Origin: Dehalococcoidia bacterium
Lineage (GTDB): Bacteria; Chloroflexota; Dehalococcoidia; Plut-88900
Direction of reading: 5' to 3'
Assembly (NCBI GenBank): GCA_965197645.1
Contig: OZ240219.1
Coordinates: 1,024,001 to 1,088,000, forward strand
DNA: 64,000 bases
Shown here one piece after another: positions 2,476 through 40,264 of this stretch (positions are counted from its first letter, which is position 1; each line of letters opens with the position of its first letter). The translations under genes and the position numbers were made by a program. The notes beneath the pieces were generated by a model. That model was not told where the DNA came from. It ran no database searches and was given only the letters and a program-made list of their open reading frames with translations.

Positions 2476-2526
2476 CGAGGCAGAAGGTTTCATAAACCGA
2501 CGGGCCTACCGGACCGACAACGCACC

Positions 2527-4332
2527 ATGGTTACAAGAGAGGAAGAGGAACAGGCTCTCGAGGAGCATGACTCGGTATTTGGGAAGCACCGCAACTACGC
2601 TCCTCCCCAGTACGAGAGCTACACCAACAAAGCTATATACCTTGCCATGAGCGAAGGTCACCGGATAGCGATCGATGTTACGCTGCCCGCACCGCTGCCA
2701 TCCGACTCCAGAATCCCCACCGTGCTCTACGTTACACGATACTGGCGGGCGAAGAAGAGTGACCCCGTCGACGACCTGGACCTCTTCTTCACAAGTCACG
2801 GCTATGCATTCGTTCGAGCGGATGAACGGGGCACCGGGGCATCCTCCGGCACGTGGCCCCATATGTGGCCTCGAGACGCCCTCTCGGACTATCGGCAGAT
2901 AATCGACTGGATCGTAGCCCAACCCTGGTCAAACGGTAAGGTTGGTGGGATTGGGGTCTCCTATTGTGGCACCACCGCCCAGATGCTGGCGGCCACCGGA
3001 CACCCAGCTGTCAAGGCGGTGATCCCAAAGTTCATCGAGCTGGATGTATACACGGATATCATCTTCCCAGGCGGAATTCTACTGGGCCCGCTGTGGAAGG
3101 AGTATGTCGAAAGATGTCGGCAGCTGGACTTGAACCGGGACATGGACGCGAGCTCCGGCGAGTCCCTCGGCACGGTCAAACCGGTGGATGCGGATGCCGA
3201 TGGGTCGATGTTGGCTGCGGCCATCGACGAGCATAGGGCCACAAACCCCGACTTTCTGGCCAGCACGTTGGTGACCTTTCGTGATGACGTGATTCCAGGC
3301 ATTGGCGTGACGATAGACGACTTCAGTGTGCATGAACTGCGTGACGAGATAGAGCGTTCCCGGGTGGCAATTTACGGCTGGGGCAGCTGGAACGACGCTT
3401 GCACCGCCGGCACGGTGCTCAGGCGCTTCACCACATTCACCAACCCACAGAGGGCGGTCATCGGCGCTTGGAACCACGGCGGCGACAAGAACGCCAACCA
3501 GTACCGACCGGACTATTCTCCCCCCGTGCCCAGCTACCTCGCGCAGTGGTTGGAGGACCTCCGATTCTTCGACTATCACCTGGACGGTGTGGACACCGGA
3601 ATAGCGGACGAGGATCTGTTGATATACCTGACGATGGGGGAGGAGAGGTGGAAGCGCACCTCGGTCTGGCCTCCGCCCACCAGCTACCAGCGATGGTATG
3701 CTCACCCCGAAGGCGTGCTCCAGTCCGGCCCCTCTCCGTCGAAAACGGGCGCCGATCGATATGAGGTGGACTTCGAGGCAAGCTCGGGGAGCGAGACCAT
3801 CTGGCATACCGAGTTCTCCACCGAGGATGTCGTCTACGGGGATAGGGCCGGGGCCGATTCGCGCTTGCTGACCTACACTTCGAGACCGCTGGAAGCCGAC
3901 GTTGAGGTCACCGGACATCCCGTGGTGACTTTATACGTGACCTCCAACCGGGAGGACGGCGCCTTCTTCGTCTACCTGGAGGACGTGTTCCCAGACGGCG
4001 AGGTGAAGTACGTGACCGAGGGACAGCTGCGAGCACTGCACGGAAAGGTATCCAAGGACGAACCCCCGTATAGGATGTTTGCGCCTCATCATAGCTACAA
4101 ACGGGCCGACGCTGCCCCATTTGTCCCCGGCGAGGTGAAGGAGCTCGTGATCGGCCTTCAGCCCACCTCGGTCCTATTTCGCAAGGGGCACTGCATCCGG
4201 ATCGCTATTGCGGGCCATGACAAGGGTGCTTTTGAGCGAGTACCCCACGACGCAGAGTCCGGCGTAGTCATCCAGGTACAATGTAACGAGACCCATTCCT
4301 CCCACGTAGATTTACCCATCATCGCCAGGTAA
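2527..4332 (+). CDS. CocE/NonD family serine hydrolase
   Basis: TRYWR, DERGTGASSG, G-V-S-Y-C-G, GAWNHGG, C-terminal LLTYTS..L...EVTGHP. Confidence 0.88.
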   Translation: MVTREEEEQALEEHDSVFGKHRNYAPPQYESYTNKAIYLAMSEGHRIAIDVTLPAPLPSDSRIPTVLYVTRYWRAKKSDPVDDLDLFFTSHGYAFVRADERGTGASSGTWPHMWPRDALSDYRQIIDWIVAQPWSNGKVGGIGVSYCGTTAQMLAATGHPAVKAVIPKFIELDVYTDIIFPGGILLGPLWKEYVERCRQLDLNRDMDASSGESLGTVKPVDADADGSMLAAAIDEHRATNPDFLASTLVTFRDDVIPGIGVTIDDFSVHELRDEIERSRVAIYGWGSWNDACTAGTVLRRFTTFTNPQRAVIGAWNHGGDKNANQYRPDYSPPVPSYLAQWLEDLRFFDYHLDGVDTGIADEDLLIYLTMGEERWKRTSVWPPPTSYQRWYAHPEGVLQSGPSPSKTGADRYEVDFEASSGSETIWHTEFSTEDVVYGDRAGADSRLLTYTSRPLEADVEVTGHPVVTLYVTSNREDGAFFVYLEDVFPDGEVKYVTEGQLRALHGKVSKDEPPYRMFAPHHSYKRADAAPFVPGEVKELVIGLQPTSVLFRKGHCIRIAIAGHDKGAFERVPHDAESGVVIQVQCNETHSSHVDLPIIAR

Positions 4333-4401
4333 ATCAGGGGGAGATTCGGCTATACTAGGCTGGCTTGAAAGGACATAACCGGCGCTGTAAAGGACTGAGC
4401 A

Positions 4402-5382
4402 ATGAAGTTCGATATATGTCTTCCCAACGGGATGGAGGGCCTACTGGTACCCGCCCCCTTCGCCGGCCCCGAGGAGATCACCAAGTTCGCCAGGGAGGCC
4501 GAGCGCTTGGGGTACAACGCCATATGGGCCTTTGATTTCATCGTTCCGGCTGCCGGCTTGCCCATCCCCGATGGTGAGACGCCCAACTGGTACGAGATGT
4601 TGACCACGCTAGCTTACGTCTCCGGGGTGACGGACCGGCTCAGGCTGGTCGCGGGGGTGGTGGTGCTGCCCAACCGGGAGCCGGTGCTGCTGGCCAAACA
4701 GGCGGCCACCATCGATCAGTTCAGCAACGGGCGGCTTGACCTGGGTATAGGATTGGGAGGCCGGCAGGAGTTCGAATCGATACAGCCTCGGGAGCGGGGC
4801 GCTTATCGAGGAGACATGGTCGATGAGAAGCTGGAGGCCCTCAAGCTCCTGCTGAGCCAAAGCAACGAGCCGGCCAGCTACAAGGGCAAGTACGTCGAGT
4901 TCGAGGATATCAACCTCGACCCCAAGCCGGTGCAGGATCCGCTGCCCATGTTCACCGCGGCGGAGACTCCGGCCCCGTTGAGGCGTGCAGTCAAGTGGGG
5001 CCTCACCCCGATCATACGGGACAAGGACCTGGTGGAGAGGAAGAAGCAGCTGGAGCCGCTGCTGGAGGAGCACGGCAAATCGCTGCAGGACATACAGATT
5101 GCGGTCTGGGCCGACATCAGTATCGAGCCGACCACCAAGGCAGCCGCCGACCGGTACATGAACAGCAGAATGGGGCTCTTCCGCAACCAGGACGCCGAAA
5201 GCCTGACCCGGGAACACTGGATCGGCACCGTGGAAGAGGTGGCGGAAAAGCTGGTCAGGATCAAGAACGAGGGCGTCGATCACGTGGTGGCCATGCATAC
5301 AGCCACCAATACCTTCGAGGAGATGATGGAACAGGCCCAGCTCTTCGCCGAAGACGTCAAGCCCCTGGTAGACAAGGCCTGA
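4402..5382 (+). CDS. LLM class (probably F420-dependent) oxidoreductase
   Basis: AERLGYNAIW, VLPNREPVLLAKQAATIDQFSNGRLDLGIG, PKPVQDPLP. Confidence 0.88.
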   Translation: MKFDICLPNGMEGLLVPAPFAGPEEITKFAREAERLGYNAIWAFDFIVPAAGLPIPDGETPNWYEMLTTLAYVSGVTDRLRLVAGVVVLPNREPVLLAKQAATIDQFSNGRLDLGIGLGGRQEFESIQPRERGAYRGDMVDEKLEALKLLLSQSNEPASYKGKYVEFEDINLDPKPVQDPLPMFTAAETPAPLRRAVKWGLTPIIRDKDLVERKKQLEPLLEEHGKSLQDIQIAVWADISIEPTTKAAADRYMNSRMGLFRNQDAESLTREHWIGTVEEVAEKLVRIKNEGVDHVVAMHTATNTFEEMMEQAQLFAEDVKPLVDKA

Positions 5383-5404
5383 TTGTAGAACCCGAGGAGC
5401 GAAA

Positions 5405-6442
5405 ATGGCAGACGCAGGCCCTACACCCAACGCTTTCGAGTTGCCGGACACCGTCGAGGCGATCGAGTACTACTACGAGCAAGGCCTCACCGATGGACTT
5501 CCGGTGGTGCCGCCCACTGAGCAAAGGGTGATTCAGTTCCTGGAGCAGGGTGGCGTCGAGCCCGACGAGGTGCTGGGTACCCGGCCCAGCCGCAACTGGG
5601 TGGTGACCGCAGATAAGGTGGCCATCAACGCCATAATGGCCGGGTGCCTTCCCGAATACGCTCCGGTTGTCCTGGCCGCGGTCAGAGCTATGATGAAGCC
5701 CGCGTTCAACGCCTCGGCAATAACCGAGACCACCGGGGGGATGTCGACGCCGATGGTACTGGTCAACGGACCGATCAGCCGAGAGCTGGACATCAACTCG
5801 GGCTGGAACCTCTTTGGGCCGGGCTGGAGGGCCAACTCGACCATCGGCCGGAGCCTGCGGCTGGTCCTCATCAATGTCTGCAACGAGGTCCCGGGCATCA
5901 GGGACAAGTCGGCCTTCGGCAGCCCCGCCCGTTACACCTGTTGCATCGCCGAAGCCGAGGAGACCAGCCCCTGGGAACCGTGGCACGTGGAAAAGGGATA
6001 CCCGCTGGACTCCAACGCGGTCACCCTCTTCGCCGCCTTTCCTCCCATGAGCGTCTCCAACTACGTCGACAACACCCCCGAGGGGATTCTGGACACGATA
6101 AGCCAGAACATCGCTGCCAACAACACGTGCCACGGCGAGGTGATACTCATCATGAGTGGCGAGCACCTGGCCACTATAGGGCCGGCGGGCTGGAGCAAGA
6201 GACGGGTGAAAGAGTACATCGCAAACAAGGTCGATGAGCTCAAGCCGGTCTTATACCTTGATCAGGGGCGTGGTTACGAAATGGGAGGATCGACTCCTCA
6301 GCCTTCCAAACCCCCGGCGAGACCCACTTCGCCGGACGACATCGACCTGCTGGTGGGTGGAGGGCCGGGAGGCGGGGTATCTGCACTGCTGCCCCTCTTC
6401 GGCATCGGCGATACGGTAATGGAACCGATTGTAGAGCCCTAA
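5405..6442 (+). CDS. Conserved hypothetical protein (TDGLPVVPPT family, recalled as often near UGSC/thioredoxin-like genes)
   Basis: TDGLPVVPPT, KVAINAIMAGCLPEY, RANSTIGR, CCIAEAEE..PWEP; GAGG RBS. Confidence 0.7.
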   Translation: MADAGPTPNAFELPDTVEAIEYYYEQGLTDGLPVVPPTEQRVIQFLEQGGVEPDEVLGTRPSRNWVVTADKVAINAIMAGCLPEYAPVVLAAVRAMMKPAFNASAITETTGGMSTPMVLVNGPISRELDINSGWNLFGPGWRANSTIGRSLRLVLINVCNEVPGIRDKSAFGSPARYTCCIAEAEETSPWEPWHVEKGYPLDSNAVTLFAAFPPMSVSNYVDNTPEGILDTISQNIAANNTCHGEVILIMSGEHLATIGPAGWSKRRVKEYIANKVDELKPVLYLDQGRGYEMGGSTPQPSKPPARPTSPDDIDLLVGGGPGGGVSALLPLFGIGDTVMEPIVEP

Positions 6443-6459
6443 AGGGTGGTGAAAAACTA

Positions 6460-6570
6460 CTTCGACCATCCCCCTGGCCCCCTTCCTGGCCAGGAAGGGG
6501 GGAAGAAATAAAGATAGTTTCTGAGGGACACCCTCAGACTCCTGGCAAAGGGGCTTCGCCCCTCTGCACA
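6460..6570. repeat. Palindromic intergenic repeat module (REP/MITE-like left arm)
   Basis: 24-bp perfect palindrome 6478..6501, then CTGAGGGACACCCTCAG hairpin and GGGGCTTCGCCCC hairpin; related copies near 21643, 25776, 26065, 48504, 50030. Confidence 0.8.
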
Positions 6571-6862
6571 CCCCACGGATTGCCCCCACAGGCTGCCCTA
6601 CACCCATAACATGAGAGAAGAGAGGGCGAAGCCCCTTTGCACACCTCACGGATTGCCCCTACAGGCTGCCCTGCACCCATAACATGAGAGAAGAGAGGGC
6701 GAAGCCCCTTTGCACACCCCAGGGATTGCCCCCACAAGCTGCCCTGCACCCATAACATGAGAGAAGAGAGGGCGAAGCCCCTCTGCACACCTCACGGATT
6801 GCCCTTACAGGCTGCCCTGCACCCATAGCATGAGAGAAGAAAGGGCGAAGCCCCTCTGCACG
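6558..6862. repeat. 73-bp tandem repeat, about 4.1 copies
   Basis: TGCAC anchor recurs at 6565, 6638, 6711, 6784, 6857; units near-identical; no unique spacers. Confidence 0.95.
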
Positions 6863-6909
6863 TCCCATGTTTCATCGGCTTGCGGCAGGCGTGTAGGTGG
6901 CCTGCTTGC

Positions 6910-9648
6910 TTAGGCCAGATTCCGGGGGACGAAACTCATCTTGTGTTTGATCTCGGACTCCCCGGTCTTTCGCACTCGGCCCTTGCCCAGCTTGTATCGG
7001 TACCGGTTGTTGATGGGGTCGGTCTGGCCGGGCGACACGCTGTTTACCGCCGTCGACAGCTGGCCCTGGAGGAAGTTGAAATACCCGCAAGTGACCCCCG
7101 GAGGCACCTGGGGAGTAACGAAGGCCACCGCCTCGAAGCTGGCGGAGTCGTATCCGCCCGACTGGGTGAGGACCCGATCGTTCTCCACCACCACGGTATC
7201 GCCGCTTTCGATGCCTCGCGCCGCGGCGTCCGCCGGATTGATCTCCAGGAAATTGGCCGGGAATAGGTCCCACCGGTAGGGTATGCGCACGTCGTCGAAC
7301 TGGGACTGCCAGTGCTCGTTGATGCGGGTGTTGGTCACCCACAGCTCGCCTCCCGTGGGCGCGAATTCCTCCTGAAACGGCTTGACCTCATTCCAGTCCC
7401 CGTTCACGAAGATGGCTTTCCTGCTCGCGGTCCCGAACCCATCTTCATGCAGCCGGACCGTCCCCCGAAGCTGGTCCCCGACCCTGGTAATGGGACACTG
7501 GATGCCCGTGGTGCCCAGCTCTCGCAGGACCTCGTGGGCACGCCGGCCCCGGTCCCGAGCCAGCTCGACCAGTGCGGAGTAGTCATGGACGCTGCCCCTG
7601 GACGCCTCCGAGGCCTCCTCGAACACTTCGTTGGGTGCGTCCCAGTCGAACCCTTCGAACCCCATGCGTTTGGCCACCTGGGCTATGATCCACCAATCGG
7701 GCTTCGCCTCTCCGGGCGGGTCCATGAACTTGGAGTAGAGTCGCAGGCGGCGCTCACCCTGCATTCGTGAAACGTCCACCTCCCCCCACGTGGCAGCGGG
7801 AAGGAGCAGGTCGGCGAACTCGGTGAGGGCATTTTCGTATATCTCCTGCTGGACCAGCGCCATCCCGCCGTTGTCGATCCGGGCTCTGAGTAGATCGAAG
7901 ACGTTCTGGTAGTTGAACCGGCCGGAGGCACTGCCTCCCTCGAATGCATCCTGGAGCGTCAACTGCGGCTCCGTTTCTCGAGTCAGTCTCCGGACCTGCT
8001 TGGCCAGGTGTTGGGATGCGCCCATGGCTGCCATCCAGGTAGACCCGATGACCCACATGAAGCGCACGTTGTCCTCGGCGACCCACCTGTCCAGGTTCAA
8101 CTCGATGTTGTTGCCCTTGAAGTTATCAGCCGACTTTTCCTTGGGGTACTTCCCTCCTTTGATCATGCCTCGCTGGTGGCCGCCGCCCCGAGAGATCATT
8201 CTGCCCGGCCGATTACCGGCGCCGGTCAGCAGTCCCAGGCTGACGAAAGAGGCGGTGTTCTCGTAGTTGTGGCCCCAGTAGTTGCCCTTCTCCACCATCA
8301 GGGAAGTAAGGGGACGGACGCCATCGTCCTTGGGTTTCGACAGCATTTCAGCGGCCTGGCGGATCTTCTCGGCGGGGACGCCCGTTATCGCTTCTGCATT
8401 CTCCGGGGTGTAACTCGGCTCGCCCAGGACGGTGTCCCTGTATTGATCGAAGGTCATGCCGAACATGCTTCGTCGCCACGAGGTCTCCCTCCCAAGCTCC
8501 TCGCTGCCGGCGGTGTGCTGGGCGATAAACTCCCCGTCTTCCCAGCCATTCTCCAGGATGACCCTGGCGATGGCGTTGTTCAGCACGGTATCGGTGCCGG
8601 GTACGAGCTGCAGATGGAGACCTCCCCTTTTCTCGGCGAAGCTGGCCGTGTAGTCCTTACGAGGGTTCACCACGACCAGCTTGGCCCCACCCGGTGATAT
8701 CCACTGCTGGAACAAGATGGACTTGGTCTCGTACAGCGTGACCCCGGAGACGTATATGACCTCGGCATCCTTCCAGTCCTGGTAGGAGGCGCTGAAGGCG
8801 TTGACTCCGGCGTCGCTGAGCCCGGGTGTGTCCGCGCCGTCGGCGGGTTTATCGTGAGGCGCCCAACAGGGAGTGTTGATGGCGTCCAGAGCCAGCTTGG
8901 TAAGGGCGTAGGTATTCTCGTAGTAAGCGTACGAGTACATCTTCATGCCCCATGCCATCTCGGAATACCTATCGATAACATATCGGGATAGGTCGGCCAC
9001 CAGGTTCAGGGCGTCCTCCCAGGGGATGGGCACCAGCTGGTCACCGACCCTGATCTGCGGATGCTGGAGCCGGTCTTTGGTGGGCTTGCCGGCGTGGTAG
9101 AGCTTTTGAGAGAGGGTCCCGCCCCGGACGCTGTGGTCTCCGGATACGTTCACCACCTTCGTATCGCCGTCGGGGATGATCAGCACGTGGTGAGACTCCT
9201 GCCCGATCATAACGATGTTCTGCATGTTGGGTGATATCCACTTGCCGGAGAGGGTGGCAACGGGGAAATCGACGCCGAGGGCGTTCCCGGCGGCGCTGGC
9301 ATCTCCAGACGTTCCTACAGGCCAGGTATAGACCTTGTAGCCGCACCCAACCACGCAGTAGTCGCAGGCGGTTGTGGTGACCCTGGCGTTCCTGGGCGGT
9401 ATAACAACCTCGCCGGCCCCCTCGGGCGGTGGAGGTGAAATGGTAGAGGCTGGCGCCGGACCCGCCGTAGGAACAGCGGTGGGAGTGACGTCGGCGCCAC
9501 AGGCGGCAAGGACGGCGGCGGCACCGCCGACACCCAGTAGGGCCACAAAGGTCCGCCTGGACATACCTGCGGCCTTGGCCCTCACCCAGAGCGGCCCATT
9601 GTCGTTATCGGGCTGATGGTGTGGGAATCGGTTGACGGAGTCGGTCAT
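6910..9648 (-). CDS. DMSO-reductase-family molybdopterin oxidoreductase large subunit, AioA/IdrA clade (IdrA-like motifs), with Tat-lipoprotein signal
   Basis: [3Fe-4S] motif CDYCVVGC...HSVRGG, YSYAYYENT, HDKP, EKGNYW, SRGGGHQRG, LPAATWGE, ERRLRLYSKFMDPPGEAKPDW; N-terminal SRRTF...LAAC. Confidence 0.9.
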   Translation of the reverse strand: MTDSVNRFPHHQPDNDNGPLWVRAKAAGMSRRTFVALLGVGGAAAVLAACGADVTPTAVPTAGPAPASTISPPPPEGAGEVVIPPRNARVTTTACDYCVVGCGYKVYTWPVGTSGDASAAGNALGVDFPVATLSGKWISPNMQNIVMIGQESHHVLIIPDGDTKVVNVSGDHSVRGGTLSQKLYHAGKPTKDRLQHPQIRVGDQLVPIPWEDALNLVADLSRYVIDRYSEMAWGMKMYSYAYYENTYALTKLALDAINTPCWAPHDKPADGADTPGLSDAGVNAFSASYQDWKDAEVIYVSGVTLYETKSILFQQWISPGGAKLVVVNPRKDYTASFAEKRGGLHLQLVPGTDTVLNNAIARVILENGWEDGEFIAQHTAGSEELGRETSWRRSMFGMTFDQYRDTVLGEPSYTPENAEAITGVPAEKIRQAAEMLSKPKDDGVRPLTSLMVEKGNYWGHNYENTASFVSLGLLTGAGNRPGRMISRGGGHQRGMIKGGKYPKEKSADNFKGNNIELNLDRWVAEDNVRFMWVIGSTWMAAMGASQHLAKQVRRLTRETEPQLTLQDAFEGGSASGRFNYQNVFDLLRARIDNGGMALVQQEIYENALTEFADLLLPAATWGEVDVSRMQGERRLRLYSKFMDPPGEAKPDWWIIAQVAKRMGFEGFDWDAPNEVFEEASEASRGSVHDYSALVELARDRGRRAHEVLRELGTTGIQCPITRVGDQLRGTVRLHEDGFGTASRKAIFVNGDWNEVKPFQEEFAPTGGELWVTNTRINEHWQSQFDDVRIPYRWDLFPANFLEINPADAAARGIESGDTVVVENDRVLTQSGGYDSASFEAVAFVTPQVPPGVTCGYFNFLQGQLSTAVNSVSPGQTDPINNRYRYKLGKGRVRKTGESEIKHKMSFVPRNLA

Positions 9649-9675
9649 AGCACTGCTTCCCTGTATGTGAATCGA

Positions 9676-10233
9676 TTAGCCGGACGCCGGAGTAACTCCC
9701 TGCAGGTTGTCATGGAAGCCGTAGATGAGCCCGGTGACTCCCATGGCATAGACCTCGTTGCCCTCCACCTCCAGCATGATCTGGGGCAGACTCTGGGTGG
9801 CCTGGCCGAGAATCATGATCCCGTTCTTCGACAGATCAAACCGGCTGTAGTGGAAGGGGCATGGTCCCAGCATCTTGAAATCGTGTCGATAGGTGGTCTG
9901 CATGGGGCTTCCCAGGTGCGGACAAAAGTAGCTGAAGGCGACCACGTCCCCGCTTGGGCCCACACCATCGTTGGCCGCGGTCCCGAGCTTTACAACGAAG
10001 TTCCGTTGCTCTTGACCCGGATACCGGAATTCCAAGGGCTCGCCCTCGATCAGGTCGGAGAGCTTGGCGACGCTGCTCCGAGGGTAGGAGCGGGTGATGC
10101 GGGCGGCGTTCGGTCCCGCCGCCGCCACCTTTTCGATTCCCTTGGGGAAGGCGTAGATGCCAACCGCGGCCGTACCCGCCACTGCGGCCGATGCAGTCAA
10201 GAACCGTCTACGGGAAATCTTGCTTTGGCGCAT
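9676..10233 (-). CDS. Rieske [2Fe-2S] small subunit (AioB/IdrB-like) with Tat signal
   Basis: SRRRFL Tat motif; CPHLG...CPFHYSRFD; GQATQSLPQIML; GLIYG; ATG 10233 preferred to TTG 10248. Confidence 0.9.
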   Translation of the reverse strand: MRQSKISRRRFLTASAAVAGTAAVGIYAFPKGIEKVAAAGPNAARITRSYPRSSVAKLSDLIEGEPLEFRYPGQEQRNFVVKLGTAANDGVGPSGDVVAFSYFCPHLGSPMQTTYRHDFKMLGPCPFHYSRFDLSKNGIMILGQATQSLPQIMLEVEGNEVYAMGVTGLIYGFHDNLQGVTPASG

Positions 10234-10266
10234 GAGAGTCCTATCCAAACATCAGAATTTGAAACC

Positions 10267-11043
10267 TCAGACCAGTGAGTGCCCACCATCGACGACGATG
10301 GTGTGGCCGGTCACCATAGACGAAAGATCGCTGGCTAGGTAGGCCACGGCGCCGGCCATGTCCTTGGCCTCCATCATCTTGCCCATCGGGATCCCATAGT
10401 CCTCCTCGGACCAGGTCTTCTCCTCCGGATCGAAGGTCGAGGACATCTGGGTCTTGGTGGGGCCGGGGGCGATGGCGTTAACCCGGATGTTGTACTCGGC
10501 CCACTCGACGGCCAGCGCCCGGGTCAGGTTGACCACTCCTCCCTTGCTGGCCGAATAGGCGGCTGAGTTCCCATGAGGAAGCACGACGAAGGCCAGCTGG
10601 GATGCCGTGTTGATGATGCTGCCTCCACCGGCCTTGACCATCTCTCGACCGGCGGCCTGACAGCCGAAGAAGACGCCCTTCAGGTTGACGTCCAGCACCT
10701 CGTCCCACGTATCCGGAGAGAGCTCCAGGGCGGTCCCAGGGAGCAGAACGCCGGCGTTGTTGACCATGACATCCAGCTTGCCCTGCTCCTGTACTACCCG
10801 GGATACCGCCTCCGATATCGAGGCCGGTTCTCGCACGTCCCCTTCGAGGAACTGCGCCGTCCCACCGGCGTAGACGATGGACGTGACGAGGCCGGCGGCA
10901 TCCCCATTCGTATCGGGGAGATCGAAGATGGTCACCTTTGCACCGCAGGAGGCTAGGCCGCGTGCAATAGCTTCGCCGATGCCCCGGCTGCCGCCGGTCA
11001 CCATCGCTACCCGTCCGCTCAGATCTATCTCCATGCCCGTCAT
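10267..11043 (-). CDS. SDR family NAD(P)-dependent oxidoreductase
   Basis: TGGSRGIG, NNAG, YSASK, VNAIAPG. Confidence 0.92.
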   Translation of the reverse strand: MTGMEIDLSGRVAMVTGGSRGIGEAIARGLASCGAKVTIFDLPDTNGDAAGLVTSIVYAGGTAQFLEGDVREPASISEAVSRVVQEQGKLDVMVNNAGVLLPGTALELSPDTWDEVLDVNLKGVFFGCQAAGREMVKAGGGSIINTASQLAFVVLPHGNSAAYSASKGGVVNLTRALAVEWAEYNIRVNAIAPGPTKTQMSSTFDPEEKTWSEEDYGIPMGKMMEAKDMAGAVAYLASDLSSMVTGHTIVVDGGHSLV

Positions 11044-11168
11044 ATGGCGTAGACCCCCTAAGTAATTGATGAGGAAATGCTATCACAGTTCAAGCCCCAG
11101 GGTGGTCAAGAACGGCGCTGGGCGCGATAATTCAGGTTCAGTCGGTACGTGGGCCAAGGAGGTAAGAG

Positions 11169-12296
11169 ATGGCAGAAGAGCTGATCGTATCTTCGGATTC
11201 GCACGTGTTCGAACCGCCCGATCTGTGGACCAACAGGATTGATCCCAAGTTCCGGGGCCGTGAGCCTCGCATGAAGCGGGTGGGAGAGGTGGACCACCTG
11301 GTGATCGAAGACGACCAGACCATCAGCGGAATAGGCCTGATATCCAACGCCGGGGCCAGGTTCGATGCACCGGAGACGATCTCTGACCACGGCAAGTTCG
11401 ATGACGTGCTTGTCGGGGGTTACGAACCGGAGGAGCACATCCGGGACATGAAGATAGACGGGGTATCGGGCGAGGTGCTGTACCCGTCTCAAGGCCTCTT
11501 CTACTTCGGCATCGAGGACTCCGACCTCACCTCGGCGGTGTTCCGGACCTACAACGACTGGCTGTCCGAGTTCTGCAGCACCAATCCGCAGCGTCTGAAA
11601 GGCATAGCGATGATCAACTTGGACGATGTCCAGGAGGGCATCGCCGAGCTGGAGCGGGCCGCGGGCCTGGGCCTGGTGGGGGCGATGATCTGCGAGTATC
11701 CCGCTGAAGAGCGACGCTACTACAGCCCCGAGTACGAGCCTTTCTGGGCCGCCGCAGAGCAGCTTCGGATGCCGCTGAGCCTACACACGGCGACGAAACG
11801 GTATCAGAGCAACTTTGCAACCGGGGCGATAAGCGATGCCACCGGGCGGGCCAACAAGGTGTTCTGGCCTTCGGCATCAATGTGCGACATGATCTTTTCC
11901 GGCGTGTTCGAAAGATACCCGGGCCTGAACATCGTAATCGTCGAGTTCGAGATCGCCTGGGCGGCACATCTGCTCGGCACCATGGACTACACCTACCACG
12001 AGCGCCACGAGGAAGCCACCTACCGATACAGGGACGGCAAGATGCCCTCCGATTTCTTCCGCGAAAACGTTTTCATCAGCTTCCAGGAGGACGGCATCGG
12101 AATCCGCCTGAGGGACGTGATAGGGGTTGACTGCATGATGTGGGGTTCCGACTATCCCCACTCGGAAGCGACCTTTCCCAGGTCCCGGGAGATCATCAAC
12201 GAAATCCTGGAGGGCGTAGCCAAGGACGATAGGGCGAAAATCATCGGCGGCAACGTGGCCAGGCTCTACAACATGGATATCGATATCCTGAACTGA
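11169..12296 (+). CDS. Amidohydrolase family protein (amidohydro_2 type)
   Basis: SSDSHVFEPPDLW, YNDWLSEFCS, LSLH, WGSDYPH. Confidence 0.9.
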   Translation: MAEELIVSSDSHVFEPPDLWTNRIDPKFRGREPRMKRVGEVDHLVIEDDQTISGIGLISNAGARFDAPETISDHGKFDDVLVGGYEPEEHIRDMKIDGVSGEVLYPSQGLFYFGIEDSDLTSAVFRTYNDWLSEFCSTNPQRLKGIAMINLDDVQEGIAELERAAGLGLVGAMICEYPAEERRYYSPEYEPFWAAAEQLRMPLSLHTATKRYQSNFATGAISDATGRANKVFWPSASMCDMIFSGVFERYPGLNIVIVEFEIAWAAHLLGTMDYTYHERHEEATYRYRDGKMPSDFFRENVFISFQEDGIGIRLRDVIGVDCMMWGSDYPHSEATFPRSREIINEILEGVAKDDRAKIIGGNVARLYNMDIDILN

Positions 12297-12312
12297 GACC
12301 GAGGAGGACCAC

Positions 12313-13878
12313 ATGTACAGCCCGATCAGATTTCCCGACGAGGTGGAGACCCTGGTTCGTTTCATCGAGGAGACGGACGCGGACCGGATAATCGGCGAGA
12401 CCGTGGAGAAGCTTCGCGGCGGCGTTTCGGCCAGGGAGATGCTAAGGGCCGCCGCTCTGGCCGTGGTGCGCAGCACCGAGCTGCCCGCCGTTCATCACGG
12501 TGGTGCAGTCCATCCCATATGCGGCCTCCACGGCTGCTACGGCACTTCCCAGCGACTTCGCGGCGAGATGGCCTTCCTGCCTATAGTGCAGCACGTGGCG
12601 TTGTGCAATCACCACATCCAGTCCCGCCACATGGGGCCCTATATCATGCCTGAACTGGAGCCGATGGACGGCTCGGTGGACAGGCCCTACGAGATCTACA
12701 AGGACCGGGAGTCCAGCATAGTGCACCTGGGCGGCAAATCCGACAACGGCAGCAACGGCGATGCTCTCGAGATGACCAAGACGGCCTTCTTGAACAATAT
12801 CCAGTCCCACAGGCCGGTGGCCGCCGAGCAGCTGTACCTGTGGCTGGCGGAGCGCCAGTCCCCGGGCGAGGTCATGGATCTGCTGTTGCCCGGCTTCATT
12901 ACCAGAAACTACCGGGACGATCACAATATCCTGTATCCAGTGTTCACGGCTCGAGCGCTGGATGACATAGGTTGGGAGTGGGCGCCGGTGCTGATGCGGC
13001 CCATCGTTCGCTACCAGGCTAGGAGCGGAGGCGATCTGTCCGACGGATCGACTTCCGGGTTCCAGGCCGTCGAGGACGTGGTGGAGGAGTTCGGCCTGCT
13101 GGATATGGACATCCCCTTCCACACGACGGAGGATGAGACCGAGACGGTCCGGGACCTTGGCGAAGCCATCGGGTCCAACCGCACTTTCTTCGACAACATA
13201 GAGATGATGGGTCGGGCGTTGGCGGAAGGTCTATCGCTGGAGGGCACCGGCGAGGCCCTCTCCGTCGGCACCTCGATGATCTTCTCCAGCACCAACTACG
13301 GCAACCCCATGGACTCTCACCCCCATACTGGCGTGAACACCCGCCGCTACATCGTCCAGATGGAGGGAGTCAGCGTTAAGAACAAGCTGCTGGCCCTTCT
13401 CACCGGGCTAACCGGGCCCGAGTGCACCATCAGCGAGCGCAAGATGGTTTGGCCGCCGCGCACCGATCCGGAGGTCCTGGCCGGGTTGCCCCATCGCAGC
13501 CAGGGCGATCTGCTGGCCGCCGTCGTCGAGACCGTGGAGAACCAGCCACCGGCCGACTGGAGGAACACCTCCGAGCTGGACAGTGTGGTAGCGCCCGACG
13601 AGGTGCAGCACACCAAGGCGCTGGCCGAGCAGTACATCGACTCCGGCTACGAACCCTCGGAGCTGATCGTACGGTTGGGCGAGCTGATCTGCCGGGACGA
13701 CTTCACCGAGCTTCACGCGGTCAAGCAGCACCAGGCCATCATCGACGAGTACAACACTACCCGGGAATCGCTGAGATCGATACACCTGGTGGCGGCAGCC
13801 AAGTCGGCGGCCGTGGTGCACGCGGGCAGGGAGCAGCGGGTGTACACCGAGTTCCTCCAACAGTCCAAAGTAGCCTAG
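12313..13878 (+). CDS. Hypothetical helical protein with four spaced His motifs (putative metalloenzyme)
   Basis: 521-aa ORF with GAGG RBS, 16 bp after the amidohydrolase; motifs GGAVHP, DDHNILY, MDSHPHT, TELHAVK. Confidence 0.7.
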   Translation: MYSPIRFPDEVETLVRFIEETDADRIIGETVEKLRGGVSAREMLRAAALAVVRSTELPAVHHGGAVHPICGLHGCYGTSQRLRGEMAFLPIVQHVALCNHHIQSRHMGPYIMPELEPMDGSVDRPYEIYKDRESSIVHLGGKSDNGSNGDALEMTKTAFLNNIQSHRPVAAEQLYLWLAERQSPGEVMDLLLPGFITRNYRDDHNILYPVFTARALDDIGWEWAPVLMRPIVRYQARSGGDLSDGSTSGFQAVEDVVEEFGLLDMDIPFHTTEDETETVRDLGEAIGSNRTFFDNIEMMGRALAEGLSLEGTGEALSVGTSMIFSSTNYGNPMDSHPHTGVNTRRYIVQMEGVSVKNKLLALLTGLTGPECTISERKMVWPPRTDPEVLAGLPHRSQGDLLAAVVETVENQPPADWRNTSELDSVVAPDEVQHTKALAEQYIDSGYEPSELIVRLGELICRDDFTELHAVKQHQAIIDEYNTTRESLRSIHLVAAAKSAAVVHAGREQRVYTEFLQQSKVA

Positions 13879-13992
13879 CCGGGGGTGGAGCCCACCTCGT
13901 TTGTGGTCTCCGGCAGGCTGACGAAATATGGGGAGTGTGGAGTACCCTTGCCGGGCGACAGCGGTGTCCCTCACACGGGCAAAGCCTAGCCA

Positions 13993-14580
13993 GTGAAGAT
14001 CGATGGTTATGGCATCGAGCCGCTGACCACCGATAGGTGGGCGGACCTGGAAACCGTGCTGGGCCCGAGCGGACATGGCGGCTGCTGGTGCACCTACTGG
14101 GTTCATCCCAACACCGTCGTCTGGGGAGAGGGCGCCAAGGGCGGCAAGAACGGTGCCAACAAGGGGCTCTTTCAGCGGATCGTAGACCAGGGGCCTCCGC
14201 CCGGCCTCCTCGCCTACCATGAAGGCACGCCGGCAGGCTGGTGCAGGATCATGCCGCGGGCGAGCCAGCCTGGTCTCGCCAATATCCGCTTCTTCAAGAT
14301 GGGCCTGGCAATCGAGGGTGTCTGGTCCATCCCGTGCTTCGTGGTGCGCCCCAAGTATCGTGGGCGAGGTCTTACGAGTGTATTGATCAAGGCGGCAATG
14401 CGATACGCCCGTTCCCAGGGCGCCCGGTCCATCGAGGCCTATCCATGGGATACCAACGAGAGAAAGGGCGCCGGGACCATTTTCACCGGTGTAGCTTCCA
14501 CGTTTCATCGTCTCGGGTTCGAGGTGGTGCAGCGAAAAGTGGCCCACAGACCGATGATGAGATTGGAACTGGACACGTAG
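13993..14580 (+). CDS. GNAT family N-acetyltransferase
   Basis: GCWC N-terminus, WSIPCFVVRPKYRGRGL, IEAYP, F..LGF. Confidence 0.85.
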   Translation: MKIDGYGIEPLTTDRWADLETVLGPSGHGGCWCTYWVHPNTVVWGEGAKGGKNGANKGLFQRIVDQGPPPGLLAYHEGTPAGWCRIMPRASQPGLANIRFFKMGLAIEGVWSIPCFVVRPKYRGRGLTSVLIKAAMRYARSQGARSIEAYPWDTNERKGAGTIFTGVASTFHRLGFEVVQRKVAHRPMMRLELDT

Positions 14581-14646
14581 GCCTCTCTCGAACGTCGGCC
14601 ATATCTGCTATCATCTTCCAACCTGACTACACCCGCGGAGGAGACC

Positions 14647-16104
14647 ATGGTAACTGTACAGATGGACTTGTTCTCGTCGGCTACGGACATGCTGACGGCA
14701 TTGGAACAGCGCAAGATATCCTCGGTGGAGCTGCTGGAGCTGCACCTGGAGCGCATCGAGAAGTACAACCCCAAGCTGAACGCGATCGTGATTCCCAACT
14801 ACGAAAACGCCCGCAAGGTCGCAGCGGCAGCTGACGATGCCCGCTCCAAGGGCGAAACCGGTCCCTTCCTGGGGCTACCCCTGACCATCAAGGACTGCAT
14901 CGACGTCAATGGATTGGCCGCTACCGGGGGCCTGAAGGAGTTCGCCGAGCGCATCGCAGACTCCGACTCCAGGCTCGCCGGACGGGTGCTGGGGGCGGGG
15001 GGCGTGCTGATGGGCAAGACGAACGTGCCGCCCGGTGCGGCGGACTGGCAATCGGCCAACCCGATATTCGGTCGGACCAACAACCCGTGGGACCTGTCGA
15101 AGTCGCCGGGAGGCAGCACGGGGGGCGGTTCGGCAGCCCTGGCTGCGGGGCTGACCCCTCTGGAGTTCGGCAGCGACGTTGGTGGCTCGATAAGGATTCC
15201 CGCCGCCTTCTGCGGCGTCTTCGGCCACAAGCCCAGCGAGACCGCTCTTCCCAAGAGCGGACACTTCCCCGGATCGGCCCTGCCCAACCTGTTCAACGTG
15301 ATGTCGGTACAGGGACCGCTGGCCCGCACCGCAGGGGACCTGATGCTGGCGATGGACGTGGTAATCGGCCCCGACGTGGGCGAAGACACGGCTTGGCGAC
15401 TGGAGCTTCCCCCTGCCCGGCATGAGCGACTGGCCGATTTCAGGGTGGCTATCCTCCCGCTAATCGACTGGCTTCCCGTCGATGCCGAGATATCGGAATC
15501 GCTGGAGGAGCTGGTCGGCAGCCTGCGCAAGGTGGGAGCGAAGGTCCAGGAGGCCCAGCCCGAAGCCTTGGAAAACATGCGCCGTCACCACGAGCTCTAC
15601 TCCTCCATCCTGTCCGCCGCAAGCGCCCTTGGCATGTCGGAAGGCGACCGGAAGCGCAGGGCCGAGAAGATGCGTAAGGGTGAGGACCCCTTCGGCGATG
15701 CGTTAGCAAAGGGTCTCGAGGCCAGCGCCTCGGACTACAACCTGTGGTTGCAGGACCGGGAACACGTGCGAAAGTCCTATAGAGAGTTCTTCCAAGATTG
15801 GGACATTCTCCTTGCTCCCAACGACATAACGGTAGCCTTCCCTCATACGGAGGAGCCATGGCCCAAGCGCCGGCTCAATATCAACGGAGAGCCGGTCTTC
15901 TATGGCCTACAGACGGTGTATCCCGCAACGGCTACACTGAGCGGCCAGCCCTCGACGTCCTTTCCCACCAGGTTGACCAGAGCCGGATTGCCCATCGGGA
16001 TGCAGGCCGTGGGGCCTTACCTGGAAGACCGAACGCCGATACGGTTCGCCGGCCTGGTAGAGCAGGAGTTTGGGGGATTCCAACCGCCCCCAGGGTATGA
16101 GTAG
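14647..16104 (+). CDS. Amidase signature family enzyme
   Basis: GLPLTIKD, GKTNVP, PGGSTGG, GSDVGGSIRIPA. Confidence 0.92.
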   Translation: MVTVQMDLFSSATDMLTALEQRKISSVELLELHLERIEKYNPKLNAIVIPNYENARKVAAAADDARSKGETGPFLGLPLTIKDCIDVNGLAATGGLKEFAERIADSDSRLAGRVLGAGGVLMGKTNVPPGAADWQSANPIFGRTNNPWDLSKSPGGSTGGGSAALAAGLTPLEFGSDVGGSIRIPAAFCGVFGHKPSETALPKSGHFPGSALPNLFNVMSVQGPLARTAGDLMLAMDVVIGPDVGEDTAWRLELPPARHERLADFRVAILPLIDWLPVDAEISESLEELVGSLRKVGAKVQEAQPEALENMRRHHELYSSILSAASALGMSEGDRKRRAEKMRKGEDPFGDALAKGLEASASDYNLWLQDREHVRKSYREFFQDWDILLAPNDITVAFPHTEEPWPKRRLNINGEPVFYGLQTVYPATATLSGQPSTSFPTRLTRAGLPIGMQAVGPYLEDRTPIRFAGLVEQEFGGFQPPPGYE

Positions 16105-16111
16105 GGGTGGT

Positions 16112-16249
16112 ATGGGTAGTCAGACCAGGGGAGAGAAACGGGAACAACGGCGCCGTAACAGGCGCAAGATGAAGGTATCGGGCCGCAGCCTCAAGCAGCT
16201 TCTTCAGCACATAGGCCGGAAAGCGAAGAGGATCAGGGAAGTAGGGTAG
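16112..16249 (+). CDS. Small basic protein (45 aa)
   Basis: MGSQTRGEKREQRRRNRRKMKVSGRSLKQLLQHIGRKAKRIREVG; GGGGTGG upstream; fills the gap between amidase and PIG-L genes; below ORF-track cutoff. Confidence 0.6.
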   Translation: MGSQTRGEKREQRRRNRRKMKVSGRSLKQLLQHIGRKAKRIREVG

Positions 16250-23126: not shown

Positions 23127-25664
23127 CTATCTTCCACTATCGAGCCTGGACTGGACAGCCTCCCGCGCTTGGAGAAGGGGCCGCTGGAGGTAGGCCATGT
23201 GGTCGTCCTCACTGTGGTGATGGGTAACCGTGCCCGGCTGGTAGTGCCGGGCGATCTCCTGCATGTAGGTCAGGCTGCCATCGATGAGGGTAAGCATGTA
23301 CTGCGCTACGTCCTCGTCGTACATGGCCCACTCGCCTCCACAGGCCAGGTATACCGGCGAGGTGTGAGCGAAAACGCCCCTGGTCCACGCGTCATGATGA
23401 AGGGTACTTTCGTAGTAGTTGGGGCCGCCGCACCGGGCCGCCAGCCACGAGTGACCGTCTATCACGATCTTTTCCTTCAACTCCAGCCTTCGAGCGCCCT
23501 GAGGGTTTTCAGTCGAGGCCACGACCTGGCCGTTTCGGACGATCTCCAGTGTGTGGATGGGGAAGATGCTCTCGGCCCACGCCTCCACCTCGACGGCGCC
23601 GGGGCTGGACATCTCCAACGTATCGCCGATGGAGCGCCCGTCCACGGTGATGTTGATCATCGGACCGCCGGTGGCGAAGGTCCTGCCGGCGGCGACACTG
23701 TGGCGCCAGTTATCGTAGGTGAACTCCTGGTCATCGGGCACGTAGGCGTATGTTCGGTACATTCCCACCGCCACGTCGCTGGACATCTTGTCCGTCCCGC
23801 CCAGAAGGGGGATTCGATAGCCGCAGTTCAGGTACCGATAGTACTCTATGTGGTTGTACTCCATGTGGTGAATCATCTCGACGCCATCGATGCGTCCGGT
23901 GGCGATGAGGGCGGCAGGCTCACCGTTGGGAGAGGGGAAGTGGGGCAGGATGACGGTGCCGCCCTGCTCGTGGGCCTGGTCCGCCCAGTAGCTCAGGGCG
24001 GTCTGCATGGTGCCGGACAGCTCGGCTTCTACGGGGCCGTCGCTGCACCAGGGCATGATCGGCTCCTTGAGACCCCAGAGGATGGTGTGGCCCAGCATAT
24101 GCTGCCGGTTCTCCTGGGATACGTAGACGATGTTGTCGCCGGACTGGGAGATGCTGGGTGAGCCGGTAAAGTCCTCGGTGTTGGTGAACAGGGCGCCCCA
24201 CTGGGACTGGAGCAGGTTGACTACGTTCAGGTCCTCGGCCTGAGACTCCCGGTGGCTGCCCTGGGGCGATAGGAAATGGACGTGGGAGTCGCCGCTGAAC
24301 CAGCGTTGCCGGTTCATGTTGGTCCAGCGTTTGATGCGTAGGACCAGCTCCTGCTGACCCGGTTCGATGTGGACATTCGTGCGCAGCGGGTCGTACTCGA
24401 ATCCCCGGGCCACGTCGACGATGACCTCGCCGCGGGGCAGCCATCCCTGGCAGGTACCGTCTATGCAGGCGTAGGTTATCTGGCCCAGCTTCACGTCTCC
24501 GCCGTTATCGAAATGCCAGGTATCCAGGCCCGAGTTGAGGTGGTTGTGGTGTCCATGCGGCTGGTAGGGCACCCCTTCCGGCGAGCGAAAATGGACGCGG
24601 CAGGGGACCGGCTGGCCGGTGTCGTCGTCAAGGACCCGGGTACGGACCCAGTTCCTTCCCCTGTCCAGTAGCCGGACCTGCATAGCCCCCGAGGCCACAG
24701 CACCCTTGTCCTCCAGCTCGCCCCAGTTGAAGGAGCCGACCTCTCGGCCGTTCTGGCTCACGTTCACCGTGGCCGATGGCGTAGCCGAGACCTCGACGTA
24801 AGTGGGGCTGGCTTGCCGATTAGGTCTCTCTCCCCAGCCTTTGAGTGGGTCGTCGATGAACCGGTCCGCCGGATCCCTGGGCAGGGGTTGCGGATAGGTG
24901 GCCTCCCCCCGGTCCACCGCAACCTCAATGTCGAACTTTTCGTCGGCGGTTTCCCGAGCGGTCAGGGTCAGCTCAACCTCTCGAGTGCCCTGCCTGGGAA
25001 AGGGGTGCTCATCGAGGAGCCCCAGCGTTATGCCGGCCACCAGGAACCGGGGGCCTTTGGGCACAAGCTCGATGTACTCGATACGCCGGTCGGGATGGGG
25101 ATTGTTCCAACACCAGAGGTAGTAGCTGATGGGATAGTCTTCCCCGGTGCCCGTTTGCCGCAGACCCGCAAGCTCCCAGGGCCCCTCGTAGCGGGGCATC
25201 AGTTCATCTTTCACGTTCGGCAGGGCAAGGAAGGGGAAGCCCATCCCCCATTCGTTTGGTAGATAGACCAGCTCGAACCGCTCCCGTATCGGAGCGACTA
25301 TTCGCAGCCCACCCTCCATGTGGAACACGTAGTGGGCGACCAGCTCGCCCATCTTGCCGCCGCGCATAAGCTCCGACTCCAGCAGTCGATGCGCAACGAT
25401 TATCTTGGGCGCTGGTTGGCCAACGGGAATGGTCACCGGGGCGTCCCCAGCCGTTAGCTCGATGAAGCAGGCATCATCGGGCCCCGGTTCCGGTTTGCCT
25501 ACGAGGAAGGGGAGGCCGCGGAAGGACTGGCTGCCTACAGGCGCCTCCAGGAGGGGCTTGCCGCCCGGGAAAGAGCCGCCGGACGGCGATGCCTGCCTGC
25601 GGCTCGCTTCGGCCCTGCTGCTGTTGCAGAGTGAGGACAGTTCCAGGGGTTGGTAACCGTTCAT
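23127..25664 (-). CDS. CehA/McbA family (PHP-like) metallohydrolase
   Basis: PVPCRVHF, VARGFEY, WFSGDSHVHF, ENRQHMLGH, YYRYLNCG..GGTD, HTSPVY. Confidence 0.8.
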   Translation of the reverse strand: MNGYQPLELSSLCNSSRAEASRRQASPSGGSFPGGKPLLEAPVGSQSFRGLPFLVGKPEPGPDDACFIELTAGDAPVTIPVGQPAPKIIVAHRLLESELMRGGKMGELVAHYVFHMEGGLRIVAPIRERFELVYLPNEWGMGFPFLALPNVKDELMPRYEGPWELAGLRQTGTGEDYPISYYLWCWNNPHPDRRIEYIELVPKGPRFLVAGITLGLLDEHPFPRQGTREVELTLTARETADEKFDIEVAVDRGEATYPQPLPRDPADRFIDDPLKGWGERPNRQASPTYVEVSATPSATVNVSQNGREVGSFNWGELEDKGAVASGAMQVRLLDRGRNWVRTRVLDDDTGQPVPCRVHFRSPEGVPYQPHGHHNHLNSGLDTWHFDNGGDVKLGQITYACIDGTCQGWLPRGEVIVDVARGFEYDPLRTNVHIEPGQQELVLRIKRWTNMNRQRWFSGDSHVHFLSPQGSHRESQAEDLNVVNLLQSQWGALFTNTEDFTGSPSISQSGDNIVYVSQENRQHMLGHTILWGLKEPIMPWCSDGPVEAELSGTMQTALSYWADQAHEQGGTVILPHFPSPNGEPAALIATGRIDGVEMIHHMEYNHIEYYRYLNCGYRIPLLGGTDKMSSDVAVGMYRTYAYVPDDQEFTYDNWRHSVAAGRTFATGGPMINITVDGRSIGDTLEMSSPGAVEVEAWAESIFPIHTLEIVRNGQVVASTENPQGARRLELKEKIVIDGHSWLAARCGGPNYYESTLHHDAWTRGVFAHTSPVYLACGGEWAMYDEDVAQYMLTLIDGSLTYMQEIARHYQPGTVTHHHSEDDHMAYLQRPLLQAREAVQSRLDSGR

Positions 25665-39400: not shown

Positions 39401-39465
39401 TCTACATTAGAGCGATCAGGAAGGGTCGACAGGAGGCGCTTAACGCTTTTGCCATCCGCGGGGCT

Positions 39466-39494
39466 ATGGTAATTCAGGGGTTGGGGGCTGTCAA
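39466..39494 (-). promoter_or_regulatory. Putative sigma70 promoter for the radical SAM gene
   Basis: TTGACA-17 nt-TACCAT on the minus strand. Confidence 0.5.
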
Positions 39495-40200: not shown

Positions 40201-40264
40201 CCCACGTGGGATCGAACACGATTCTTCACACCCGCCCAACCGATTTGGAGAGAGCACAATTTCG

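Follow-up and report, generated by a model that had tools for sequence, protein, structure and literature searches.

A predicted membrane-anchored, IdrA-related molybdoenzyme encoded without peroxidases in a Dehalococcoidia bacterium

The window analyzed here is a stretch of 64,000 nucleotides from a sponge-associated Dehalococcoidia bacterium of the Chloroflexota (assembly GCA_965197645.1, contig OZ240219.1, positions 1,024,001 to 1,088,000), the genome of which consists of one 3.21 Mb contig with a completeness of 94.5%. It carries a pair of genes for a molybdoenzyme of the AioA/IdrA family, that is, the family of arsenite oxidase (AioAB) and iodate reductase (IdrAB). Both lie on the minus strand, and in the direction of transcription the Rieske gene, B, comes first (9676..10248, minus strand); its [2Fe-2S] product has 190 amino acids if read from a TTG codon, or 185 from the ATG at 10233. 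The molybdopterin gene, A (6910..9648, minus strand), specifies the catalytic, bis-molybdopterin guanine dinucleotide-containing subunit of 912 amino acids, assigned with its IdrA-type pocket on the basis of its open reading frame (ORF), family profiles, trees and pocket table. A preliminary description, made from the letters of the DNA, had noted this order together with the motifs TTTACDYCVVGC, YSYAYYENT, WAPHDKP, EKGNYW and GGHQRG, and all of these are found in the translation of A. It had also treated the B-then-A order as a distinctive trait. The order is real but universal in the family and no distinguishing feature: a Rieske ORF stands directly upstream of A in 42 of 42 related loci in which one was called.

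Subunit A matches the Pfam families Rieske_3 (3Fe-4S; 6.4e-30), Molybdopterin and Molydop_binding, and subunit B matches Rieske and TAT_signal. The [3Fe-4S] motif of A, C95-x2-C98-x3-C102 (9343..9366, minus strand), falls within Rieske_3 and occupies columns which are invariant in the homologue alignment. The cluster ligands of B are C109-P-H111 and C130-P-F-H133 (9850..9924, minus strand); the 18 residues between the two boxes are as many as in IdrB, and there is no disulfide Cys pair. Residues 12–34 of B (10147..10215, minus strand) comprise SRRRF followed by a hydrophobic stretch, with matches to TIGR01409 and PF10518, and form a Tat signal or N-terminal anchor.

With 468.9 bits against a cut-off of 359.05, A passes the AioA equivalog test of NCBIfam TIGR02693, and B passes TIGR02694 (122.6 bits, cut-off 95.65). 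An annotation pipeline will therefore name the BA pair arsenite oxidase, as had been foreseen; an NCBI cluster approximately 84% identical to A carries this name already, and other public relatives are labelled arsenate reductase (azurin) or arsenite oxidase. TIGR02693 is without discriminating power here because the IdrA of Azonexus hydrophilus NCP973, described in PMC13455634 as one of five isolated iodate respirers, also exceeds the cut-off (425.6 bits, with NT-26 AioA at 1499.5). No Idr-specific profile gave a match in the NCBIfam search.

A word-indexed protein search returned 740 proteins at E<=1e-20, among them a block of Chloroflexota/Dehalococcoidia proteins of some 900 amino acids which are 64–97% identical to subunit A; the wide set is 45–58% identical. 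A scan of species genomes gave 559 relatives, and the locus counts below use the best 80 of these 559 plus added reference records (Azonexus NCP973, Vibrio, Thiothrix, NT-26, Thermus HB8, Hydrogenophaga and Cytobacillus). Two trees were built, a quick one of 93 sequences (LG+G4) and a careful one of 43 of those 93, for which supports are given as ultrafast bootstrap/SH-aLRT. Two frameshifted sequences (L020, L022), one partial sequence (L026) and four near-duplicates (L007, L014, L051 and L075) were left out. IdrABP1P2 systems are also named in papers for Pseudomonas sp. SCT, Denitromonas iodatirespirans IR-12 and Azoarcus sp. DN11; the IdrA reference in the trees and comparisons here is that of Azonexus NCP973.

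The two trees agree. AioA is split from the rest at 100/99 in the careful tree and 99 in the quick one, and the query lies on the far side of this split, in an Idr-like superclade (100/99) which falls into three clades. The members of clade I are Thermoplasmata, Acidimicrobiia and one Verrucomicrobiales metagenome-assembled genome. Clade II (99/96) holds Myxococcota-type sequences and 15 Dehalococcoidia sequences, the query included. Clade III (95/90) comprises an alpha/beta-proteobacterial group and a group with the locus order peroxidase-peroxidase-B-A (PPBA), to which belong Azonexus NCP973, NC10/Rokubacteria, Planctomycetota and Dehalococcoidia enzymes of a second type. Clade II is the sister group of clade III (100/98), so that the query stands not inside the clade holding the enzyme of an isolated iodate reducer, but in the clade next to it. 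The proposal that the protein lies outside AioA in an IdrA-related clade is thereby upheld: it nests neither within AioA nor within the peroxidase-linked IdrA clade. Two deep sequences (P0126 and P0131) branch between AioA and the superclade, apart from the Dehalococcoidia clade.

Eight second-sphere residues of AioAB have been singled out as conserved from crystal structures, namely Asp169, His199, Arg201, Glu207, Lys413, Arg447, His451 and Glu453; the same work presents Asp169 and Glu453 as important for activity (PMC10448176). We judged the pocket by alignment to residues named in such crystal-structure papers, using 11 positions, namely these eight and their neighbours 200, 415 and 416; the NT-26 numbering fits the alignment. 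The AioA pattern, D-H-N-R-E-K-I/L/A-I-R-H-E, is found in 8/8 AioA sequences (one with Ala at 415), all of which keep the eight second-sphere residues. The Dehalococcoidia of clade II read S-H-D-K-D-K-N-Y-R-H-R in 15/15 sequences, which is the majority pattern of clade III (6/6 and 28–36/36 per position). Compared with AioA the query differs at 7/11 positions and keeps four of the eight second-sphere residues (His199, Lys413, Arg447 and His451); Asp169 has become Ser, Asn200 Asp, Arg201 Lys, Glu207 Asp and Glu453 Arg. Its agreement with the Azonexus enzyme extends to 10/11 positions, the odd one being 453, where Azonexus has Cys and not Arg. The two deep sequences keep the AioA pattern H-N-R-E-K-L-I-R-H-E. 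At 90%/85% conservation the Dehalococcoidia clade can be told from clade III by just seven columns of the alignment, all of them outside the pocket sites.

These substitutions fall in four segments of A, all on the minus strand. In YSYAYYENT (residues 238–246; 8911..8937) S239 takes the place of AioA Asp169, being Ser in 15/15 clade II Dehalococcoidia where 8/8 AioA sequences have Asp; the segment is four residues shorter than in 7/8 AioA-clade sequences (the exception is Cytobacillus), and the Gly-rich insert of four residues which AioA has before YENT is missing. The stretch H-D-K-P-A...D (residues 265–273; 8830..8856) contains H265, equivalent to His199, D266 and K267 in place of Asn200 and Arg201, and D273 in place of Glu207; A269, after H-D-K-P, stands where other family members have their ligand to molybdenum, which is missing here. 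In EKGNYW (residues 453–458; 8275..8292) K454 is Lys413, N456 replaces Ile/Leu and Y457 replaces Ile. Finally, in R-G-G-G-H-Q-R-G (residues 487–494; 8167..8190) R487 and H491 are Arg447 and His451, and R493 replaces Glu453 with reversal of charge.

Clade I has a pocket of its own, S-H-H-A-D-K-L/V-Y-R-H-R, with H-H-A for H-D-K and EKG(L/V)YW. Its A proteins (loci L021–L024, L027, L033, L034, L042, L043, L049, L053, L055, L057 and L062–L064) are without signal, peroxidases occur at 0/16 of its loci, and it represents a third uncharacterised branch.

The absence of peroxidases sets the query's clade apart from clade III. ORF clustering and Pfam identified a cluster of 404-amino-acid proteins at related loci as di-haem cytochrome c peroxidase. 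Using four peroxidase queries, tblastn located such genes at 38/87 loci overall and at 38/42 of the clade III loci (one of the misses is cut at the record start), with none at the 41 loci of clades I and II, at the four AioA loci or in the window. The four Dehalococcoidia genomes with a clade III enzyme each have exactly two PF03150 genes, both at the locus. PF03150 has no match in the query genome or in 11 further Dehalococcoidia genomes carrying the clade II enzyme, and since it is missing from 12/12 carriers we regard this as a property of the clade and not as an assembly gap. In the models set out in PMC8692401, IdrP1 and IdrP2 are detoxifiers, not core catalysts. As a separate observation, B has a divergent peroxiredoxin (AhpC/TSA) gene upstream of it at two relatives' loci (L012 8721–9185, L014 8709–8921); the L012 copy is broken into two parts that do not share a frame, perhaps owing to a frameshift or a sequencing error.

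The arsenic context is equally bare. Pfam scans of 48 other window ORFs revealed no peroxidase, cytochrome c, ars or aioXSR family. Genome-wide, tblastn found no AioS, ArsB, thioredoxin-type ArsC, ArsD or ArsR (glutaredoxin-type ArsC and ArsM were not searched for), nor is there an acr3. The suggestion that idrP1/P2 and aioXSR be sought in the rest of the genome can thus be answered in part: idrP1P2 and aioS are absent, and the AioX and AioR queries gave weak generic matches only.

A further peculiarity of this enzyme is the export signal of its catalytic subunit. Residues 20–50 of A (9499..9591, minus strand, coordinates derived by hand) consist of an n-region LW..A.AAG, the twin-arginine motif SRRTF, a hydrophobic stretch and the lipobox L-A-A-C ending in Cys50, a layout conserved in the homologues of some 900 amino acids. 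A Pro/Thr/Ala-rich linker (residues 51–80; 9409..9498, minus strand) leads from the predicted lipid-anchored Cys to the first folded domain, and similar linkers occur at all Dehalococcoidia-clade loci listed. A Tat signal with lipobox was found on A at 15/16 Dehalococcoidia loci, the sixteenth being cut at a contig end, versus 0/33 PPBA-clade loci; the same Tat-lipobox-linker layout is present on A of several Myxococcota-type loci. Published IdrA is described as lacking a signal peptide and as being co-exported with IdrB (PMC8692401). Proteobacterial and Thermus AioA likewise have no signal of their own and are exported with the Rieske subunit. Since other extracytoplasmic proteins of the query genome also begin with lipoboxes, the anchor on A looks like an adaptation to a cell without a closed periplasm. 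The alpha/beta-proteobacterial IdrA proteins (L036, L045, L052, L061, L069 and L074) display an N-terminal "SRR.FL.AARTP" on A with no hydrophobic region behind it, which may be a vestigial or chaperone-binding Tat remnant.

With the Azonexus IdrABP1P2 system the pair shares a Rieske gene directly upstream of a [3Fe-4S] molybdopterin subunit, the pocket as described above and the same wrong database name. Subunit B is 41.7% identical over 168 residues to Azonexus IdrB, its closest match among the references, and the spacing of its Rieske boxes equals that of Azonexus IdrB, compared with 15 residues in NT-26 AioB and 13 in Thermus AioB. Unlike Azonexus IdrA, to which it is 43.6% identical, subunit A belongs to the sister clade and bears its own Tat-lipobox signal and linker. 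The Azonexus plasmid locus (L086) is ordered ccp, ccp, B, A, cytochrome c, moaA, whereas the query has neither idrP1 nor idrP2, at the locus or in the genome, and no adjoining cytochrome c or moaA. Its host, unlike those of the IdrABP1P2 comparators, is an aerobic Dehalococcoidia bacterium.

The best matches among solved structures (E 2e-83) are the AioAB enzymes of NT-26 (PDB 4AAY) and Alcaligenes faecalis (1G8K), with which the pair has in common the fold family, the cofactor set, the B-then-A order, the four retained second-sphere residues and the non-ligating Ala. The [3Fe-4S] Cys triad, like the Ala at the ligand position, occurs in AioA and IdrA-type enzymes alike. Set against this, A is only about 30% identical to AioA, no aioXSR-type operon exists at the query locus or elsewhere in the genome, and the locus has no cytochrome c.

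The clade has not gone unnoticed, having been flagged in 2021 as an uncharacterised outgroup of IdrA. Reyes-Umana et al. describe a Dehalococcoidia homologue without peroxidases as such an outgroup, of undetermined function, and call for more work (PMC8692401). Their outgroup, comprising Halorubrum spp. and Dehalococcoidia bacterium GCA_002730485.1, is likewise IdrA-related with a neighborhood free of peroxidases, and the homologue of GCA_002730485.1, matched by description alone, very probably belongs to the query's clade. The account given of it runs to one sentence, without pocket residues, export signals or genome-wide peroxidase absence. Our literature search found no paper on the function, pocket or export of this clade, and no arsenite-oxidase terms were found in PMC12008989.

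By tree, pocket and context the enzyme is not AioA. Nor is it a canonical Idr system, because it is without peroxidases, its A subunit bears a signal and it falls outside the isolate-bearing clade. At the same time the preliminary description went too far in speaking of a new oxyanion redox system: the pocket positions are those of the IdrA clade, and the same or a similar substrate is therefore the simplest reading. The high-potential [3Fe-4S]/Rieske chain of the AioA/IdrA family suits acceptors such as iodate. On these comparisons we tentatively regard the BA pair as a membrane-anchored reductase of iodate (most likely) or of another high-potential oxyanion, working without peroxidases, and assign to this reading a probability of roughly 0.48.

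Under this iodate-reductase reading the molybdoenzyme would sit on the outer face of the cytoplasmic membrane, held by the lipid anchor of A. Electrons would reach it from quinol through an alternative-complex-III-like module and a lipid-anchored c-type cytochrome, or in some relatives from a cupredoxin encoded directly upstream as an alternative donor, and would pass from the Rieske cluster by way of the [3Fe-4S] cluster to molybdenum. There a high-potential oxyanion, most likely iodate, would be reduced, presumably to hypoiodous acid as in the published Idr model. The organism is aerobic and has one haem-copper oxidase, so that the enzyme might provide an additional outlet for electrons when oxygen is scarce and iodate as low as in seawater or host tissue, and at such iodate levels the by-product oxidants may be small enough to manage without dedicated peroxidases. 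Extended to the clade, this would mean that a lipid-anchored IdrAB reduces iodate without a dedicated peroxidase in aerobic Dehalococcoidia, both host-associated and free-living, and in Myxococcota-type bacteria, a proposition which we rate as slightly less likely than not. A bolder variant is that the clade has shifted to a substrate not yet tied to this enzyme family.

Several points weigh against the iodate-reductase reading. An iodate-reductase function for clade II rests on sequence comparison. Peroxidases accompany nearly all clade III loci, and their total absence here may mean a different reaction with different by-products. The loop after H-D-K reads P-A-x-G-A-D here and is variable in clade III (P-G-P-G, C-S-A-T, P-T-A), so that the pockets are not identical, and the isolate-anchored Azonexus enzyme itself has Cys for Arg at position 453. 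The published definition of IdrA deliberately excludes homologues without peroxidases, the HMM cut-off of Reyes-Umana et al. being described as chosen to leave out peroxidase-less genomes (PMC8692401). In marine aerobes with full idr clusters, iodate was reduced only when oxygen was limiting (PMC11445184), and the use of such an enzyme by an aerobe would therefore be conditional. Furthermore, the query genome has no PF00127 cupredoxin and the query locus no carrier gene, and the electron donor proposed above is inferred.

A rival reading is that the enzyme acts on a different high-potential oxyanion (selenate, chlorate, bromate or nitrate); a change of substrate within an IdrA-like scaffold would then have been accompanied by the loss of the peroxidases. 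The distribution of the peroxidases (0/41 loci of clades I and II and 0/12 carrier genomes versus 38/42 clade III loci), the pocket-adjacent loop and the standing of clade II as a separate, well-supported branch all agree with such a shift, and among molybdopterin enzymes a difference in substrate between sister clades is common. What makes us consider it unlikely, while still a serious competitor, is that the 11 pocket positions agree with the clade III majority and that no accessory gene indicates another substrate, the distant chlorite-dismutase-family gene (see below) being likely of the haem-synthesis type. Oxidation of arsenite or antimonite, with electrons flowing from the metalloid through molybdenum, the [3Fe-4S] and Rieske clusters and a cytochrome c or cupredoxin to oxygen, appears improbable to us. 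The above-threshold scores with TIGR02693 and TIGR02694 speak for it, as do the equivalents of His199, Lys413, Arg447 and His451 together with the Ala at the ligand position, and the cupredoxin gene adjoining B in three relatives recalls azurin as acceptor of AioAB. A sponge-symbiont study, moreover, lists "aoxAB" in Chloroflexi as arsenite oxidase (PMC8941161), and the "unknown clade" of Reyes-Umana et al. is said to contain an arsenite-oxidising Halorubrum (PMC8692401). But half of the second-sphere residues are changed, including the charge reversal at Glu453, and it is Asp169 and Glu453 that are reported to matter for activity (PMC10448176); the profile score lies near that of IdrA and far from that of NT-26 AioA; the protein falls outside AioA at 100/99; the genome has no aioS, none of the ars genes searched for and no acr3, and only weak generic matches to aioX and aioR; and the deep sequences which keep the AioA pattern sit elsewhere in the tree.

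That the pair is what is left of a cassette acquired by horizontal transfer, now decaying or silent and without a present role, strikes us as very improbable, despite a patchy distribution. The gene is carried by four of 12 species genomes of the query's order, the flanks are not syntenic, one relative's copy (L020) is frameshifted and transposases lie near two relatives' copies. BLAST of window positions 2500–16200 against five family genomes gave only scattered paralogue matches, from which no insertion boundaries could be drawn. Yet the frames are intact and all cofactor motifs are kept in 15 diverged members (64–97% identity), and near-identical strains from the DNA runs of three studies still have the locus. 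In an RNA-library run labelled as sponge metagenome, moreover, gene A is matched exactly by two contigs, of 173 and 175 nt; they offer a weak hint of transcription, tempered by the possible presence of DNA in the library, and the stretches left uncovered carry no information.

It is still a matter of debate which organisms turn iodate into iodide in oxygenated seawater and in animal hosts, and sea-surface iodide controls ozone deposition. Surveys of idrA count only homologues beside peroxidases and so exclude the peroxidase-less ones by design. Were the clade active on iodate, the set of candidate iodate reducers would widen to bacteria abundant in sponges, soils and groundwater, and such surveys would be overlooking an entire guild that produces iodide in oxic or micro-oxic habitats, sponges among them. 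The peroxidases would prove dispensable for iodate chemistry, which would reveal the essential parts of the Idr system, and "arsenite oxidase" calls in sponge Chloroflexi would be wrong, requiring correction of the inferences on arsenic cycling. Were the substrate another one, the clade would mark a new fork on the evolutionary path from arsenite oxidase to iodate reductase. In either event the occurrence of enzymes with and without peroxidases inside one bacterial class is a natural experiment.

As to the electron-chain partners, the query genome possesses one COX1 (haem-copper oxidase) with a cytochrome-c-fused subunit II. Genes for a penta-haem and a mono-haem lipoprotein lie near a MopB paralogue, an arrangement resembling alternative complex III, and there is one more small cytochrome c. 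No TorD/NarJ-type chaperone was found in this genome. Among 18 relatives' loci a cupredoxin gene stands directly upstream of B in three; phmmer with those three proteins over 1,282 called ORFs recovered the three and one weak match. MobA is encoded downstream at 6/18 of these loci and MobB at 1/18.

On the same strand, 18 bp separate the end of a short-chain dehydrogenase (SDR) gene (10267..11043, minus strand; adh_short) from the B ORF downstream, with which it may be co-transcribed. It adjoins B in closely related strains also (contigs spanning 8275–10681), but was rejected as a functional partner: an SDR gene is nearby in only 3/18 relatives' loci (L012, L013 and L014), on varying strands, and directly upstream of B on the same strand in none of the 18. 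It is probably a bystander. Just 3' of the A stop codon is a 73-bp tandem repeat (6558..6861) of 4.2 copies with 93% match, each copy containing a small G+C hairpin; the repeat is a possible terminator region. Its unit also occurs dispersed, as copies and arrays, in two related genomes (G004 and G009), and a joint in contigs of other strains, which goes back by 62 bases at the repeat, suggests variation in copy number.

One genome of the order carries two copies of the enzyme gene, in two regulator-B-A blocks some 230 kb apart (L006 and L007; 73% and 72% identical to the query). The regulator, a single polypeptide with GAF, PAS, HisKA, HATPase, receiver and OmpR parts, lies divergently beside the enzyme at three of the 18 loci (L006 6292–8664, L007 6286–8664 and L015 6265–8778). 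The query genome has at least four paralogues which are 58–63% identical (C1:1347556–1349913, 2533783–2536149, 2966883–2969249 and 3058651–3060996). We rejected it as a locus-specific sensor, as it is adjacent at these three loci only and the query's paralogues lie elsewhere, none of them at the locus. A chlorite-dismutase-family gene, present in a single copy approximately 270 kb from the locus, was rejected as a Cld partner in view of the occurrence of the family in the Bacillus subtilis, Thermus and Corynebacterium controls; this suggests that it is of the haem-synthesis type, as in haem-making monoderms.

A number of proteins of 1,100–2,100 amino acids (P0136, P0148, P0153, P0156, P0165, P0179 and others) have an N-terminal part resembling query residues of about 85–497, with 36–39% identity in two to four stretches. 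These unexplained proteins look like fused or repeated N-terminal halves of AioA/IdrA.

By Pfam, the other ORFs of the window include peptidases, luciferase-like monooxygenases, amidases, dehydrogenases and CoA-transferases. Three ORFs with high third-position G+C (345, 521 and 845 amino acids, at 5405–6442, 12313–13878 and 23127–25664) matched no Pfam family at E<=0.001. At 38084–41505 a radical SAM/SPASM gene lies beside ORFs of 402 and 108 amino acids without a Pfam family, where the G+C content drops to 0.55; this region may be a peptide-modification cassette. At 45102–47233 the gene for a 493-amino-acid protein of the XdhC/CoxI family, in which XdhC_CoxI matches two stretches, precedes one for a MobA-like nucleotidyltransferase, and these genes serve the maturation of a different class of molybdenum enzyme.

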